The notes below the pieces were generated by a model, which was given only the letters and a program-made list of their open reading frames with translations, had not been told where the DNA came from and did not search any database. A DNA stretch of 59,749 nucleotides from a virus, in UHGV virus genome UHGV-0185078; one strand, written 5' to 3'. Each line of letters starts with the position of its first letter. Position 1 is the first letter of the stretch. The position numbers were made by a program, and so were the translations under genes. Positions 36,165 through 41,221 of this stretch are shown here, piece after piece.

Positions 36165-36629
36165 TTAAGAGTATGTACCTGTTTGAACAATGTGATTAAT
36201 AGCATGTGCTCTGAAGATTTCCCTAAAATCTTCAAGTTCTATTGTAGCACGAATTGGTTCCTTTTTAATATAATGATTGAACTCATTAATATCAAAGACG
36301 GAAGGGTTCATACATATAACAACTTTCCAACCTGCTCTAGGAATCTTATACATTAAGACTGGGATTTTATTACATTCCTGTGCAGACTTAACAGTTTGCT
36401 TCCACCATGTGTTAACAGCAAGAGTTGCATGGTTTTTGATCTCTACACAATATTGGCAAGTATTATCAATATCCGCACCACCTACAGCCGATTGATTTTG
36501 TCGCCTTTGTGCAATAGGTTTAGGTGGTAACGGTTTACCAATAAGCTTATGCACTTCCGCATAGATATCGTTGAAAAAATCGCAAGCTTCCCTTTCAGCT
36601 CTCTGACCTTTTTGCCGTATGTTGACCAT
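36165..36629 (-). CDS. PD-(D/E)XK-type nuclease-like protein
   Basis: GGADID...CVEIK motif; start placed at ATG 36629 (AAGGA RBS); 5' end overlaps HNH gene by 35 nt. Confidence 0.45.
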   Translation of the reverse strand: MVNIRQKGQRAEREACDFFNDIYAEVHKLIGKPLPPKPIAQRRQNQSAVGGADIDNTCQYCVEIKNHATLAVNTWWKQTVKSAQECNKIPVLMYKIPRAGWKVVICMNPSVFDINEFNHYIKKEPIRATIELEDFREIFRAHAINHIVQTGTYS

Positions 36630-37107
36630 GATTTGCAAATTCCTTATGTAATTCCAATCTTTTAGTTCTAACCCAAGCTTTAGCAGCTTGTAAACCTTCA
36701 GGTGTAAGTTCAAAATATTTTGATACCAAAACACCTTTTACATGTAAGTTTGCATAATAGACTTGAATGCCATTATGTTTTGTAATAGTTACGCACTTAA
36801 CACCAGTCTTTGAGTCTTTACGAATAACCATATTATAATTGTTCTGTGAACGATCAGCCAGTCTAAGATTTTCTATTCTGTTATCATCTCGAACTCCGTT
36901 AATATGATCAATTATCTTGTCTTCAGGAATATCACCATTGAAGTATTGCCATATTAACCTGTGAGCGAAATAAAATCTCTTATCAATTTTACCTTGAATG
37001 TAACCATCCTGACGTTTTGTACCAAATGGTCTTTTATTATAACCGTTTTTATTTCTTTGAAATAATTTGCCATCTATATAAATAAAGCGATCGTTTACAT
37101 TGATCAT
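36595..37107 (-). CDS. HNH homing endonuclease
   Basis: HRLIWQYFNGDIPEDKIIDHINGVRDDNRIENLRL HNH motif; start taken at ATG 37107. Confidence 0.75.
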   Translation of the reverse strand: MINVNDRFIYIDGKLFQRNKNGYNKRPFGTKRQDGYIQGKIDKRFYFAHRLIWQYFNGDIPEDKIIDHINGVRDDNRIENLRLADRSQNNYNMVIRKDSKTGVKCVTITKHNGIQVYYANLHVKGVLVSKYFELTPEGLQAAKAWVRTKRLELHKEFANHGQHTAKRSES

Positions 37108-37153
37108 GTTTACCTCCTTTATATGTATTTTAATATGAAGTAAAATCAATCTC

Positions 37154-37185
37154 AATAAAAAAGCGCAACGTTTTCACGCTGCGCT
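37154..37185 (-). terminator. rho-independent terminator closing the structured non-coding island
   Basis: Minus strand agcgcagcg-tgaaaa-cgttgcgct hairpin followed by tttttt. Confidence 0.6.
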
Positions 37186-37491
37186 TAGTTTAAATAAGGT
37201 ACTTGACTATTCAGCTTCCCTTATTTCCGGTAAATTGTACAGCCTCGCCAAAGGCTGGTGACGGTTTGGTACATCTGGCGCCGTCGCGTTAAACATCGTT
37301 TACATCGTTCAGTAAGTTGCGGGTTTACCCTGTCCGCTCCAGGAAGCCCAGCGAAAGTAGTTGCTGTAAGGAGGTACAGCTACCGCTTTCAAGGGCTTGA
37401 GTTAAGCATCGTTCACTAAGTTAATGTTGTTAAATTGTTAAACCTCGTTAACTGTGGTTATCTTAAAGGATGCAGTCTTGAATGGCAAGCT
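37186..37491 (-). other. GC-rich structured non-coding island (candidate ncRNA or cis element) between the HNH genes
   Basis: No ORF on either strand; multiple short perfect stems (cagcct-cgccaa-aggctg, gctgta-aggagg-tacagc, gggt-tt-accc); closed by terminator 37154-37185 on the minus strand. Confidence 0.4.
37294..37423. repeat. direct repeats catcgttca(g/c)taagtt within the structured island
   Basis: Copies at 37303-37318 and 37408-37423 (15/16 identical) plus partial copy catcgtt at 37294-37300. Confidence 0.5.
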
Positions 37492-37806
37492 TCAATTTTG
37501 CGCGGTTCCCTTTGCCGCTTTTGGTGCTAAAGTACCATCATTTAACATCAACTCAAAACCTGTTACTTGATCGGTTGGAACAATAGGGTAATTCATAATA
37601 GCCATGTGGATACGATGCCCTCCCTCACACTCGTCGATGTATTCATTACCCCAATAGTATAAATGCCCATCTCTTCGAATATCCATTGCCGTCGGGAAAT
37701 CTACAAGAATTCTTTTAATTTCTTTTCGTCCTTCTTTATGCAGATTAGTTTCAATACGGATAAGCTCCGCATAAATTGCTTCACAGATAGTATTTACAAT
37801 ACTCAT
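37492..37806 (-). CDS. hypothetical protein
   Basis: 104 aa ORF followed by about 300 bp non-coding structured DNA. Confidence 0.4.
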   Translation of the reverse strand: MSIVNTICEAIYAELIRIETNLHKEGRKEIKRILVDFPTAMDIRRDGHLYYWGNEYIDECEGGHRIHMAIMNYPIVPTDQVTGFELMLNDGTLAPKAAKGTAQN

Positions 37807-37831
37807 TTTTCGTTCCTCACAGAATGTACAA

Positions 37832-38386
37832 TTAAGATTCTTTTCCGTGTCTAAGACTATACCCTAATTCATACTCTTTGGCAAATCTTACTTCAATAGC
37901 TTCATCTTTTGTAGGATAACTACCAAGATGCGTCCATTTTCCGTCAATACTTATAGCAGCTTGCCAAAGTCCTGTAGCAGGATTAAATTTTACGCCCGTA
38001 CATCCGGACGTGTTGTTAATGTTCATGCGTCTATTCTTTTGGTTATCTTGTCGTGAACTATTTTTTAAGTTCCATGGACGGTTATTCAACCCATTCCCGT
38101 CATCATGATCAATTTCTTCAGGTTCTTCATTATAGAGCATCTTCCAGATTATACGATGTGCCAGATAATGAAGACCGTCTAGACCAACAAGAATATAAAC
38201 GTTTCGGTCTTTAACAACAGCGCGACCAGCTTCTTTTCCTGCGAACTGAGAGTTGAATTTGGAACAAGCTCTTTGTGTTTTAAAGAACTTTAAAGGCGCT
38301 TTCTTCCATCTTAAAATGCCAGTCTCTTCATTATACTCAAAACGATCATGCAAATAGTCAAATGAAGGTAAAGGTCTAAATCTCAT
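37832..38386 (-). CDS. HNH homing endonuclease with AP2-like C-terminal domain
   Basis: HRIIWKMLYNEEPEEIDHDDGNGLNNRPWNLK HNH motif; C-terminal GVKFNPATGLWQAAISIDGKWTHLGSYPTKDEA AP2-like; start taken at ATG 38386. Confidence 0.75.
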   Translation of the reverse strand: MRFRPLPSFDYLHDRFEYNEETGILRWKKAPLKFFKTQRACSKFNSQFAGKEAGRAVVKDRNVYILVGLDGLHYLAHRIIWKMLYNEEPEEIDHDDGNGLNNRPWNLKNSSRQDNQKNRRMNINNTSGCTGVKFNPATGLWQAAISIDGKWTHLGSYPTKDEAIEVRFAKEYELGYSLRHGKES

Positions 38387-38627: not shown

Positions 38628-38852
38628 ATGGTCATGCTGAATAAAGTATATAGCACAATGGGCGCGGATTATAAAGTTGTACGTCACCCGCGTACTGGTA
38701 AATTTGAAGCATACATCCGTCCAATGGGTGAAGGTTGGATGTATTACGGTACTTATGACGACGCTGAGAAAGCTTATAAAGAAGCGGAAAGTACAGCGGA
38801 AGCATCCGAAATTATGGCAAGGTACGACGTCGATGATTACTACCTTAACTAA
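38628..38852 (+). CDS. small hypothetical protein encoded antisense to the replication module
   Basis: 74 aa; GGAGGA RBS 7 nt upstream of ATG; followed by a perfect hairpin terminator. Confidence 0.5.
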   Translation: MVMLNKVYSTMGADYKVVRHPRTGKFEAYIRPMGEGWMYYGTYDDAEKAYKEAESTAEASEIMARYDVDDYYLN

Positions 38853-38857
38853 CAATA

Positions 38858-38883
38858 AAGGGCCTTTCGGCCCTTTATTTATT
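38858..38883. terminator. bidirectional terminator between small + gene and primase gene
   Basis: aaagggcc-tttc-ggcccttt perfect hairpin flanked by A and T runs. Confidence 0.7.
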
Positions 38884-41221
38884 CCTCTTCACCTAAGTTT
38901 GCCATAATTCCTTCAACATCTTGCGTAATGCGCCAAGCTGCCCCAGTAAATCCCAGTTTAATAGTCTCCTCCCGTGTTACCGGAACAAGGGCCCCCATAG
39001 CAACCATTTCCTTGATCGTAGACTCGATCGCTGCGGACAATCCGTGGTGATAGTTTTTAAACGCGGACTTACTTGCAAGACGCGTAGTAATATCCCCCCG
39101 CGTGATAATACCTTCTTTACGTAGATCTACACGTTTAACTTTCACCCAATCTTTAGTTAGATAATTCACACAAACCTGGCACATAGTACGGATACGAGCT
39201 TCGTCATTAGTACCAATACCCCCGCTATGCCATTCCTTCATAATGATATCCTGTCCATGGCGCACAAAGTCCAAGGCCCATTGAACATGATAGGTCTGCA
39301 CAACTGGATTGATCCAATTTTCTCCCACAGCTAACAGGGCGGATAGACGTAATACCTTCAGGTGTGCACGGTTCCATGGCTGACGGATTGCTTCATCTTT
39401 GGTTGCGTTAATATTACGGTCGCATTCATCGTTAAACTGATCACATAATGCTTCAGCATCCGGACTAAACTGCACTTCAATACTTTGATGCTTTGCCATT
39501 GCGACTAAGGTGTGGTTAACAAGATGGCACACCATATCCCGCAAATGCTGATCCATTGTAGTCTGCTGGTTCTTGTTTAAAGGCGGTCGATCCCCTTCAT
39601 AGCGGACAACATGGAAACGGGATAAGAAACCATCCTCCATCATTTCACGGGTTAATGCTTCAAAGAACGTATCCGGTGTCGTTTCGCCCATGATGCTATA
39701 TGCCACACCTTGTTGAGCTTCCGTATTATTAGCCTTATCAGAATAAGACATACCACCAACAATAGACATCTGACCGGACTTTTGATAAACATCGGTAAGG
39801 TCATTCTTGAAGCTTTGCATTGGTGAACCTGCTGGTGCCGTAGCCATTGCTTTAATAATCTTACCAAACTCACCGTTCAAGTTGATAAAAGATTGTTTGT
39901 CCGCAAAAGATTTACGCAGTGCGGAGCCGGAAGCGCATCGGTCAAAAGATACAAAGCTATGAATCTGCGGGAACGGTTCCTGAAGCTGGCTAACTATATT
40001 AGATAGCCCACTGTTCAACGTTTCTTTACCAACACCAGAACGAGCAATAAGGACGAAATATCCATTAAGACCAGATTGCGGAATCTGCCAGACCTTCCCG
40101 CATACCCCAGCCATAAAGCCTAGCGCTGTCACAATAGAAATTTCTTTCACTGGTCGGACGGATGCTTTGTAGATGTACTTCGCAAGCTCCCCAGCAAGCC
40201 CCGGCGGCCAGTCAATAGCGGTTGCATCAATAGATGTACTTTCTGCAACTACGGTCTGCCCCTGAGTTGTTTCAACAGTTACGGGCATTTCCGCTACCTG
40301 CTGCATTGCACTGTGTGCAGCTTGCATACGGGCAGCATAATCCCGCGCCAGCGCAGCTACGTTTTCCTGGGCAATGCGCTCACGCTCCATGCGTCCGCGA
40401 CACATACGCAAGCAACGGTCAATATGAACATTGTTCTTATTAGCCTTCTCACGTTTGCCCAGTGCACTGTAACGGAACAGACGACGGCATTGCTCATTAC
40501 TTTCCGTGTAAAATGCATACATAGAAATAAGGGCAAGGTCTGCTTCAGACTGGGAAGGGAAACCCATTTCAACCCATTCACCATTGAATAACCGTGAATA
40601 CTTATCGCCGTTATCTGCTTCAAGTGCGCGCTGATGAATAGTTGCATCATCTTCTACCGGATCTTTTTCTACCAGTTCAATTTCATATGTCTTGCGCTGA
40701 AGATCAATTTCATTCACAAGCATAGTAAGGTAATGATCACGTTCGGCAACTGATTTATTGTAGACAGGATTGCCCGTGCAGATAATAAAACGCTCCTGAC
40801 TATAAACCTCGACACCATCACGTCGACGACCTTTACCGATGTTACCTCTTAACCACAGGTGAACACCTAAGCCTGAGCGACTTACTTCGGTGTAAGTATC
40901 GAACGCAGTCATGATCTGTTCGAAGCGGCGCAACTGTTCCGGCGTCGTGTGCTTCTTGGGATCCGGTTCATTGGTTGCGTTCTTCACATCCAGGTCGATG
41001 CAGGTGAACGGGTCTTGTGCAGTAAGCACGAATCCAATATAAGGTTTATTGAAATGAGCGGCGCAACCTTTGGCAGCTTCAAACGTCATAAGCATATCCG
41101 GATCGGTAACGTCCGCCGCCATCAAACGTCCAATATCGCTATCCCATACCAACGGCTTTTTATCCGCATCGGCGACCGCCCATTGTGGGAAAGCTTTAAT
41201 TTCAGCGGGAAACAGTTCCAT
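38879..41221 (-). CDS. DNA primase (AEP/prim-pol-like N-terminus) fused to P-loop helicase domain
   Basis: 780 aa; N-terminal GLGVHLWLRG-type primase signature; Walker A-like ARSGVGKET in the second half. Confidence 0.6.
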   Translation of the reverse strand: MELFPAEIKAFPQWAVADADKKPLVWDSDIGRLMAADVTDPDMLMTFEAAKGCAAHFNKPYIGFVLTAQDPFTCIDLDVKNATNEPDPKKHTTPEQLRRFEQIMTAFDTYTEVSRSGLGVHLWLRGNIGKGRRRDGVEVYSQERFIICTGNPVYNKSVAERDHYLTMLVNEIDLQRKTYEIELVEKDPVEDDATIHQRALEADNGDKYSRLFNGEWVEMGFPSQSEADLALISMYAFYTESNEQCRRLFRYSALGKREKANKNNVHIDRCLRMCRGRMERERIAQENVAALARDYAARMQAAHSAMQQVAEMPVTVETTQGQTVVAESTSIDATAIDWPPGLAGELAKYIYKASVRPVKEISIVTALGFMAGVCGKVWQIPQSGLNGYFVLIARSGVGKETLNSGLSNIVSQLQEPFPQIHSFVSFDRCASGSALRKSFADKQSFINLNGEFGKIIKAMATAPAGSPMQSFKNDLTDVYQKSGQMSIVGGMSYSDKANNTEAQQGVAYSIMGETTPDTFFEALTREMMEDGFLSRFHVVRYEGDRPPLNKNQQTTMDQHLRDMVCHLVNHTLVAMAKHQSIEVQFSPDAEALCDQFNDECDRNINATKDEAIRQPWNRAHLKVLRLSALLAVGENWINPVVQTYHVQWALDFVRHGQDIIMKEWHSGGIGTNDEARIRTMCQVCVNYLTKDWVKVKRVDLRKEGIITRGDITTRLASKSAFKNYHHGLSAAIESTIKEMVAMGALVPVTREETIKLGFTGAAWRITQDVEGIMANLGEEE

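Follow-up and report, generated by a model that had tools for sequence, protein, structure and literature searches.

A candidate structured small RNA gene upstream of the resolvase gene in Seuratvirus phages

Small RNAs that are transcribed from a promoter of their own and end at an intrinsic terminator are a familiar feature of phages and prophages (e.g., RNAs C and D of T4, OOP of lambda, and the prophage-encoded DicF and IsrK), and for lytic phages the catalogue of structured non-coding RNAs is a poor one. Here we describe a non-coding element located at positions 37491 to 37108 (minus-strand sense) of the virus genome UHGV-0185078, the analyzed 59,749-nt stretch of which is referred to below as the window. 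Like the RNAs named above, this element is laid out as a discrete non-coding unit with a predicted sigma70-type promoter, a Rho-independent terminator, conserved hairpins and exposed loops; unlike them, it has no sequence or covariance-model similarity to Rfam families, and it is larger and more elaborate (~300 nt, at least five helical elements, invariant loops) than most base-pairing small RNAs. We regard it as a hitherto undescribed, apparently genus-restricted structured RNA of this familiar kind, a phage-encoded small RNA gene. That the locus specifies a discrete structured RNA we consider probable, and we lean, with distinctly less assurance, toward the more specific reading of an independently transcribed, trans-acting and Seuratvirus-specific small RNA gene of ~300 nt on the minus strand; the synthesis of this RNA and its role are both predicted. 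The element is not in Rfam, and in GenBank records it is either left blank or annotated as small hypothetical proteins, an annotation that the present analysis corrects.

The window and its neighbors are 97-99% identical to Seuratvirus (Queuovirinae) phages of Escherichia coli, including SA126VB, VogelGryff, Seurat and CAjan, and the window belongs to a coliphage of this genus. The element was found in all 35 matching database records of Seuratvirus (35/35), with or without an adjoining gene for an HNH homing endonuclease. Its first 257 nt (37491 to 37235) are 98-99% identical in 34 of the Seuratvirus database records, most of them without HNH at this place, and 77% identical in the Salmonella phage STP-SP5, while over the full unit of ~400 nt, end-to-end alignment of STP-SP5 with 30 phages gives 79%. 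A third lineage, at ~57% identity, is represented by the Hafnia phage yong3, where the element lies upstream of the resolvase gene. In Seurat, STP-SP5 and other phages that lack the HNH gene, the non-coding interval measures ~400 nt, and a comparison with such relatives, as proposed in an earlier note on this DNA, showed that they keep the element together with both of its flanking genes. Since the first 257 nt are kept in HNH-free phages, the element is not debris of an HNH gene, and the suggestion of that note that it might be a remnant of mobile DNA fails for this part; it retains some force for the last ~127 nt (37234 to 37108), which the window shares only with the five phages that have an HNH gene in this slot.

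The architectural evidence is the order of signals along the minus strand. A sigma70-like promoter (P1, 37460-37488; -35 TTGCCA, 17-nt spacer, -10 TAAGAT), located by a consensus scan, begins 3 nt past the stop codon of the gene at 37492-37806, and would give rise to a predicted primary transcript of ~298 nt (37156-37453), the start being deduced from a distance of 6-9 nt past the -10 hexamer and the end from the U tract. Both hexamers and their spacing are retained in four lineages despite differing spacer sequence (TTGCCA-17-TAAGAT in Seurat, TTGACA-17-TAATAT in STP-SP5 and TTGCAA-17-TAAGAT in yong3, with TTGACG in phage ECP2304). At the other end lies an intrinsic terminator (37155-37186; AAGCGCAGCG-UGAAAA-CGUUGCGCUU, followed by a U tract), which had been recognized before as a strong minus-strand terminator and was confirmed as 11 pairs, six of them G-C, over 37186-37161 with a T run behind them. 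Terminators with other stems stand at the matching position in Seurat (GCCCAGG/CCUGGGC+U6), STP-SP5 (GCCCAGGA/UCCUGGGC+U6) and yong3 (GCCCACU/AGUGGGC+U6), so that a Rho-independent terminator with a G+C-rich stem and a U tract is found in all four lineages (4/4), built from four different stem sequences. Directly past the terminator, a second promoter for the downstream genes (P2, 37127-37155; TTGAGA-17-TAAAAT) has counterparts detected by the scan in Seurat (TTGCGA-17-TAAAAT) and yong3 (TTGCAA-18-TATAAT), i.e., in three of the four lineages; for STP-SP5, a weaker candidate (TTGCGA...TATAAC) was read from the alignment and was not picked up by the scan. This succession of a promoter, ~300 nt of conserved structure, a terminator and a fresh promoter is the layout of a separate RNA gene rather than of a leader, and the position of P2 past the terminator would make the downstream genes independent of read-through.

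A second line of evidence comes from folding and from the pattern of substitutions. The region had been described as dense in stems, and indeed the minus-strand RNA folds with -99.2 kcal/mol (z = -3.8; 0 of 100 dinucleotide shuffles folded as well), the plus strand reaching z = -2.35. The same bias toward the transcribed strand is observed in Seurat (-3.2 vs. -1.7 for the opposite strand) and yong3 (-2.6 vs. -1.6), and the transcribed strand contains several constant G-U pairs as well as one-sided changes to G-U. Strand-biased folding and G-U pairs together suggest that the folded molecule is RNA or, less likely, one strand of DNA. Covariation was counted on a hand-specified structure. In the full-length alignment of 17 sequences, 97.2% of the cells are paired and 13 pairs have changed on both sides (6.0 +/- 1.2 in shuffles, 0/500 of which reach this number, and 1-3 in slid controls); in the 3' half, aligned with yong3 included (10 sequences), the corresponding values are 93.6% and 10 pairs (3.6 +/- 1.2 in shuffles, 1-3 in slid controls). 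Both counts, 13 and 10, exceed all 500 of 500 shuffles as well as the slid controls. The earlier interpretation of the region as a structured RNA is therefore supported by three features, namely a promoter and a terminator in four lineages, compensatory changes in helices, and better folding of one strand. Its description as rich in G+C stood only in part: overall the element is below the window (41.9% vs. 44.3%), and it is the core at 37235-37400 alone that is enriched (53%, within the top 6% of subwindows).

Part of this signal comes from a long central hairpin (37344-37398; 20 pairs in four segments, with the apical loop CCUCCU), predicted by RNAalifold and supported by pair counts. In this hairpin, 99.1% of the cells are paired and six pairs show changes on both sides. 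Of its 20 pairs, 11 are different in STP-SP5: six have both partners replaced and are paired, four are one-sided changes to or from G-U, and one is broken; a separate C-G to U-A change is observed in two other phages. The 3' hairpin (37192-37226) consists of an outer stem AAAUAAGG/CCUUAUUU, an internal loop GAA / CAAGUA and an inner stem GCU/AGU. Four forms of the outer stem are observed (GGAUAG/CUAUCC in Seurat, AAAUAAGG/CCUUAUUU in the window, GAUAGGG/CCUUAUC in SA80RD and a partial one in yong3), and the inner stem has changed from GAC/GUC to GUC/GAC in PLYYY01, with GAAG and AAGUA constant in all lineages. GAA facing AGUA characterizes the sarcin-ricin or loop E motif, and this internal loop (GAA opposite (C/A)AAGUA) may be of that kind. 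The central and the 3' hairpin are each convincing evidence by themselves.

Between them lie two smaller hairpins with invariant loops. Hairpin A (37260-37285) has a stem GACGG/CCGUC and a 16-nt loop CGCCAGAUGUACCAAA, unique within the window; in yong3 the stem is GAGGG/CCCUC, a compensatory change, and the loop differs by a single base (CGCCAGAWGUACCAAA). Hairpin B (37240-37257) has a stem CAGCCU/AGGCUG and a loop UUGGCG, with two compensatory pairs in yong3 (CAACCC/GGGUUG) and G-U variants in STP-SP5 and Greed. In every sequence, a 6-bp helix could form between the loop of hairpin B and the CGCCAG in the loop of hairpin A, and, since both loops are invariant, this pairing gives no covariation signal. 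A small pseudoknot at 37319-37343 (CCUG/CAGG interleaved with GCGG/CCGC) is a weak candidate: in STP-SP5, GUGG/CCAC replaces GCGG/CCGC, which amounts to one compensatory pair, a mismatch is present in one sequence, and CCUG/CAGG is constant. Two further stems were considered and rejected, namely a GGG/CCC hairpin at 37329-37320, where G-to-A changes break pairing in six sequences, and a 5' hairpin AGUUAA/UUAACU, one arm of which is deleted in STP-SP5.

The 5' part of the RNA is of a different character. It is an A/U-rich region (37401-37452, 30% G+C) with five UUAAC and one UGAAC pentamers spaced 8-10 nt apart, and yong3 has a similar run with a spacing of exactly 8 nt. On the DNA level, GTTAA (TTAAC on the minus strand) occurs five times in one 100-bp bin, against 0.21 expected, which is the densest bin of the window. 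The 16-nt direct repeat reported before (37303-37318, CATCGTTCAGTAAGTT; 37407-37422, CATCGTTCACTAAGTT) was verified, and a second 16-nt unit, GTNAACGAKGYTTAAC in RNA sense (GUNAACGAKGYUUAAC), is present in three copies (37452-37437, 37416-37401 and 37303-37288), found nowhere else in the 59.7-kb window. The third copy is part of a second repeat region (37288-37318; UGAACGAUG-UAAACGAUG-UUUAAC). In phage Dru_SM1, a 10-nt tandem duplication ATGAACGATG (contig L132, ~550-570, aligned to ~37311 of the window) creates a fourth AACGAUG, and the copy number of the repeat therefore differs among isolates.

Assembled into a working model, these parts suggest that host sigma70 RNA polymerase would start from P1 (37488-37460) near 37453 and stop at the terminator (37186-37155), yielding early in infection a trans-acting RNA in which a single-stranded A/U-rich 5' arm (~55 nt, with the UNAAC pentamers) would be followed by the long CCUCCU hairpin, hairpins A and B, the 3' hairpin and the terminator. 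Shine-Dalgarno sequences would be the pairing partners of the CCUCCU loop, or the loop would serve as a decoy for factors that recognize the 3' tail of 16S ribosomal RNA (rRNA); a protein would bind to the repeated UNAAC pentamers and to the invariant loops of hairpins A and B. Specific molecular partners are suggested by two features, the apical loop with its invariant copy of the 16S tail and the covarying core with its invariant loops, and, if the RNA is expressed, phage-host interaction by way of RNA would gain a new and tractable example. The element is carried by VogelGryff, a phage of the BASEL collection that grows on E. coli K-12, which makes experiments easy.

The CCUCCU loop is the best-defined candidate for a working surface in the phages of E. 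coli and Salmonella. The stem with this loop on the minus strand, pointed out before, is real (ACCTCCTTA at 37367-37375), and the loop with its closing bases, ACCUCCUUA (37375-37367), never varies, even though the stem beneath it changes at 11 pairs. In each of the 5,426 E. coli genomes that were searched, the annotated 16S rRNA ends in these 9 nt, ACCUCCUUA. Regulatory RNAs are known to pair with Shine-Dalgarno sequences through C-rich loops on stable stems, as exemplified by the C-rich apical loops of RNAIII and RsaE of Staphylococcus aureus. As in these RNAs, a stable hairpin presents the motif, here CCUCCU, at its apex, where it is constant above a covarying stem; unlike these, the element has a single such loop, which is absent in yong3 and which extends to the full 9-nt tail of 16S rRNA. 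In comparison with the anti-Shine-Dalgarno tail of E. coli, ACCUCCUUA is identical but sits in a closed hairpin loop and not at a free 3' end, and the remaining similarity of the element to the rRNA (rrn) operon does not exceed chance. The identity to the full 9-nt tail points, on sequence, to mimicry as much as to targeting. That an anti-Shine-Dalgarno loop is the working part of the RNA is a tentative proposal, and we would give appreciably less credence to its extension, in which an early and abundant RNA imitates host rRNA, especially the 16S tail ACCUCCUUA, and soaks up Shine-Dalgarno sequences or diverts host factors or defense nucleases, the UNAAC repeats and the two-hairpin core recruiting a protein partner. 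If true, such imitation of rRNA would add a new, RNA-based strategy to those by which lytic phages take over or protect translation.

A possible partner of the loop was noted in cis. The ribosome-binding site of the downstream HNH gene, AAGGAGGUA (37111-37119), is a 9-nt perfect complement of the loop sequence UACCUCCUU (37368-37376) and lies 248 nt downstream of it on the same strand. On read-through of the terminator, the loop could mask this site; the complementarity follows from an ideal Shine-Dalgarno sequence, and regulation need not be meant by it. In yong3, the position of the central hairpin is taken by a short, different hairpin, the loop of which, CCAGAUUCUUACCAAAG, resembles the hairpin A loop.

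Several observations weigh against the reading as a trans-acting small RNA gene, or limit how far it can be taken. Since the CCUCCU hairpin is missing from yong3, it cannot be a universal working part, and, with its position disregarded, the 9-nt match to the 2.2-kb rrn operon does not exceed chance. Among the transcripts of the phage's own genome, no antisense match of at least 13 nt to the element was found, apart from a terminator-like T run. P1 fits 8-10 of 12 consensus positions, and P1 and the terminator are predictions from sequence only. The diversity of the available sequences is small (three lineages and one variant 3' domain), and the covariation figures overstate the number of evolutionary events; moreover, hairpins kept by compensatory change could equally act in single-stranded DNA. 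Finally, once mosaicism is allowed for, the conservation of the element is unexceptional. Between Seurat and STP-SP5, the RNA element is 79.6% identical, compared to 84.8% for the resolvase, 64.1% for the primase and 53.6% for the dUTPase; between Seurat and yong3, the corresponding values are 57.4, 70.6, 64.8 and 57.4%. For the protein encoded upstream, identity amounts to 43% between Seurat and STP-SP5, and to 54-64% in two contigs with a 99%-identical RNA. A much stronger conservation of the element than of its neighbors was considered and dropped, as direct measurement shows a mosaic, and, raw conservation being unexceptional, the case rests on structure and architecture.

Among other explanations, the one that fares best, unlikely as we judge it, is a cis-acting RNA, either a regulated leader (attenuator, riboswitch or antitermination element) governing read-through into the genes for the resolvase, the dUTPase and replication, or a 3' untranslated region whose structure would end and stabilize the upstream operon. 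The order of promoter, long structured RNA, strong terminator and genes is the usual one for an attenuator, there is no terminator between the upstream gene and the element, so that upstream transcripts would enter it, and the two invariant hairpin loops could make a pocket for a ligand or protein. Against it speaks the presence of P2 between the terminator and the downstream genes (by scan in three of the four lineages, the STP-SP5 candidate being weaker and found by eye), together with the location of a separate promoter straight after the upstream stop codon. By inspection, no antiterminator pairing common to the lineages was recognized, the terminator stem differing completely, and Rfam gave no match to a riboswitch or leader family.

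A role of the DNA itself, as a replication origin or single-strand initiation signal, seems somewhat less probable still. Here the 16-bp units and TNAAC pentamers would serve as iterons for an initiator such as the primase-helicase, the 30% G+C stretch as an unwinding element, and P1 as a source of transcriptional activation or of a primer, with the hairpins forming in single-stranded DNA. Iteron-dependent or RNA-primed origins, e.g., lambda ori, P4 ori/crr and ColE1 with its RNA II, do share with the element locally unique direct repeats, an AT-rich stretch (here the 5' part), an adjacent promoter and nearby replication genes: the three 16-bp units and the TTAAC cluster are found at no other place in the genome, the copy number of the repeats varies between phages, as with iterons, and the gene for a PrimPol-helicase (38879-41221) is 1.4 kb away. 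Unlike at such origins, the pentamers, irregularly spaced 8-10 nt apart (8 nt in yong3), are out of step with the helical repeat of DNA, the units are 36 and 113 bp apart with hairpins between them, and the region is closed by a terminator, with a U tract in every lineage, which, like the better folding of one strand and its G-U pairs, fits RNA. A similarity of the primase-helicase to an iteron-binding initiator was sought and not detected. The cumulative GC skew has its turning points near 15 kb and 43.5 kb and gives no signal at 37 kb, which is weak evidence, as skew in phages follows transcription.

It is very improbable that the element is a functionless leftover of repeated HNH insertion and recombination with stems formed by chance. 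The slot does behave as a hot-spot of HNH insertion and mosaic exchange, and the last 127 nt travel with the HNH gene, but the compensatory pair changes go well beyond shuffled and slid controls, the loops are invariant across lineages with different stems, and every matching database record of Seuratvirus, HNH-free ones included, has the element. The earlier note's alternative of a group I intron or its remnant carrying the HNH open reading frame (ORF), with 37492-37806 and 36165-36629 as exons, can be set aside almost entirely: it shares with HNH- or GIY-YIG-bearing introns only the placement of a structured non-coding region beside an HNH gene in a lytic phage, reminiscent of intron-encoded endonucleases, whereas no Intron_gpI core (P3-P9, P7) or other Rfam match was found even at E <= 10, no gene is split (the supposed exons are independent genes of unrelated protein families and not one joined reading frame, the upstream one with its own stop codon and the resolvase with its own start and a match to PDDEXK_15 from profile position 2), the terminator and promoter leave the HNH gene outside the structured unit, and HNH-free phages retain the element and both genes as separate ORFs.

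The searches for known RNA families, one of the checks proposed at the outset, gave no match in the element. With gathering thresholds, cmscan against Rfam 15 returned 0 matches for the whole window, and at E <= 10 over 36400-38000 it returned two chance matches to unrelated families, neither inside the element. ARAGORN detected no transfer RNA (tRNA) or transfer-messenger RNA in the element, and no description of the RNA was found by literature and Rfam searches. CsrA-type GGA motifs are not enriched in the element by our own count from its sequence.

Coding potential was assessed as well. The statement that the region contains no ORF is not literally true, given a 53-amino-acid ORF on the plus strand (37258-37419) and others of 27-29 amino acids; it is correct in the sense that there is no conserved coding frame. 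The ORFs differ in frame and sequence among the window, Seurat, STP-SP5 and yong3, so that invariant nucleotides are read in different frames, and small peptides were rejected as an explanation in view of frameshifts between lineages, with indels breaking the frames in STP-SP5 and yong3. Hypothetical proteins are annotated over the element in VogelGryff (bas25_0058), Dru_SM1 (NGRRMQZB_64) and several KS_ phages, and ORFs called over it (37258-37419 on the plus strand of the window, 2573-2734 of contig L004 and 605-694 of contig L132) lie in frames that are not kept in STP-SP5 and yong3; judging from these comparisons, they are probably spurious.

A resemblance to the leader of rrn operons was also considered. 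The sequence UUUAACAAUUUA (37424-37435, minus strand; nt ~19-30 of the RNA) matches the boxA region of the E. coli rrn leader, TGCTCTTTAACAATTTATCA, without a difference over 12 nt; the leader sequence was itself confirmed. A boxA or nut site, of which the consensus is GCUCUUUAACAA, was rejected: only UUUAACAAUUUA is in common, and the 5' GCUC reads GAGG in the element. Local alignment to the boxA region gave p ~0.03 against shuffles in Seurat and was not significant in STP-SP5 and yong3. The best rrn match of yong3 is instead UAACAAGGUAA, at a site near the 3' end of 16S rRNA.

The 3' part of the element has a mosaic history. In the alignment to Seurat, close identity breaks off at 37234 and resumes precisely where the dUTPase gene begins; the diverged block (36165-37234, minus strand) comprises the 3' domain of the RNA, the terminator, P2, the HNH gene and the whole gene of the PDDEXK_15 resolvase. 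The resolvase protein of the window shares 62% identity with the Seurat type and 97-100% with the proteins of HNH-carrying phages; Seurat, STP-SP5 and most relatives lack the downstream HNH gene. The region is therefore a resident element with a 3' end that was replaced along with the arrival of an HNH-bearing module, the new 3' end being recognizable as a diverged version of the same structure. The locus is a hot-spot for HNH insertion and exchange, and the HNH genes found here are free-standing insertions in a recombination hot-spot and not passengers of an intron. A different HNH_3 gene occupies this slot in SA80RD and OddieOddie, and in contig L130 an HNH gene follows the resolvase.

The genes discussed at the locus are on the minus strand, apart from a short plus-strand ORF (38628-38852). 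In order of transcription, the gene of the PrimPol-helicase (41221-38879) comes first; the short ORF, convergent to it, lies between it and an upstream HNH_3 gene (38386-37832). Next comes the complete gene of a hypothetical protein of 104 amino acids (PHROG 25787; 37806-37492) with its own stop codon, followed by the non-coding element. Downstream of the latter are the free-standing HNH_3 homing endonuclease gene (37107-36595; Pfam HNH_3, E = 3.7e-21), with its ribosome-binding site AAGGAGGUA at 37119-37111, the PDDEXK_15 resolvase gene (36629-36165) and the dUTPase gene. The description of the element as flanked by two HNH genes holds on the downstream side, where HNH_3 starts at the ATG at 37107, and not on the upstream side, where the HNH gene at 37832-38386 is separated from it by the 104-amino-acid gene. 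The 3' end of the downstream HNH gene and the start of the resolvase gene overlap by 35 nt (36595-36629). A terminator-like hairpin (38854-38879; AATAAAGGGCC-TTTC-GGCCCTTTATT) between the end of the PrimPol-helicase gene and the ORF at 38628-38852 is annotated in SA126VB and Seurat as a bidirectional terminator.

Beyond the phages described above, the element appears to be restricted to the genus, as nothing outside it was recovered from IMG/VR, JGI metagenomes, GTDB, lookups of neighboring proteins or a covariance-model search. Exact and gapped motif scans of IMG/VR found only three contigs, all close to Seuratvirus, and a loose scan added 120 chance matches; the JGI metagenomes contained two close copies and one chance match within a coding region, and the GTDB genomes seven matches, about the number expected by chance, each scoring at most 13 bits with the covariance model. 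Lookups of homologues of the upstream protein yielded three further contigs with near-identical RNA. Among 80 IMG/VR loci of resolvase relatives compared by blastn, only known Seuratvirus contigs carry the element; the covariance model (R1), the match of which spans 37287-37190 of the window, was run on the first 26 of these 80 loci (the closest relatives, with three known carriers omitted). There is no detectable copy in the Nonagvirus 9g, Klebsiella phage K9PH25C2, Providencia phage PSTCR4 or Pantoea phage Vid5.

The same slot upstream of the resolvase gene is of interest in these relatives as well. Long unannotated gaps with terminator-like hairpins at their ends are present in 9g (457 bp; contig L138, 3038-3494) and PSTCR4 (640 bp; contig L140, 2855-3494). 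Neither has homology to the Seuratvirus RNA by blastn or covariance model, and they may contain unrelated RNA genes in the same slot; the Nonagvirus gap was examined for an analogous RNA, and the sequences proved too similar to be informative. PSTCR4 contains AACTTAGTGAACCAAGTGA, similar to AACTTAGTGAACGATG of the window. Aeromonas phage SD04 and Cronobacter phage CSP1 are 98-99% identical to the coliphages over the element and the upstream gene, a closeness that seems unexpected given such different stated hosts. In related phages, the slot also holds other RNA genes, e.g., in Pantoea phage Vid5, where it is occupied by a tRNA-Ser (contig L141, 3194-3281).

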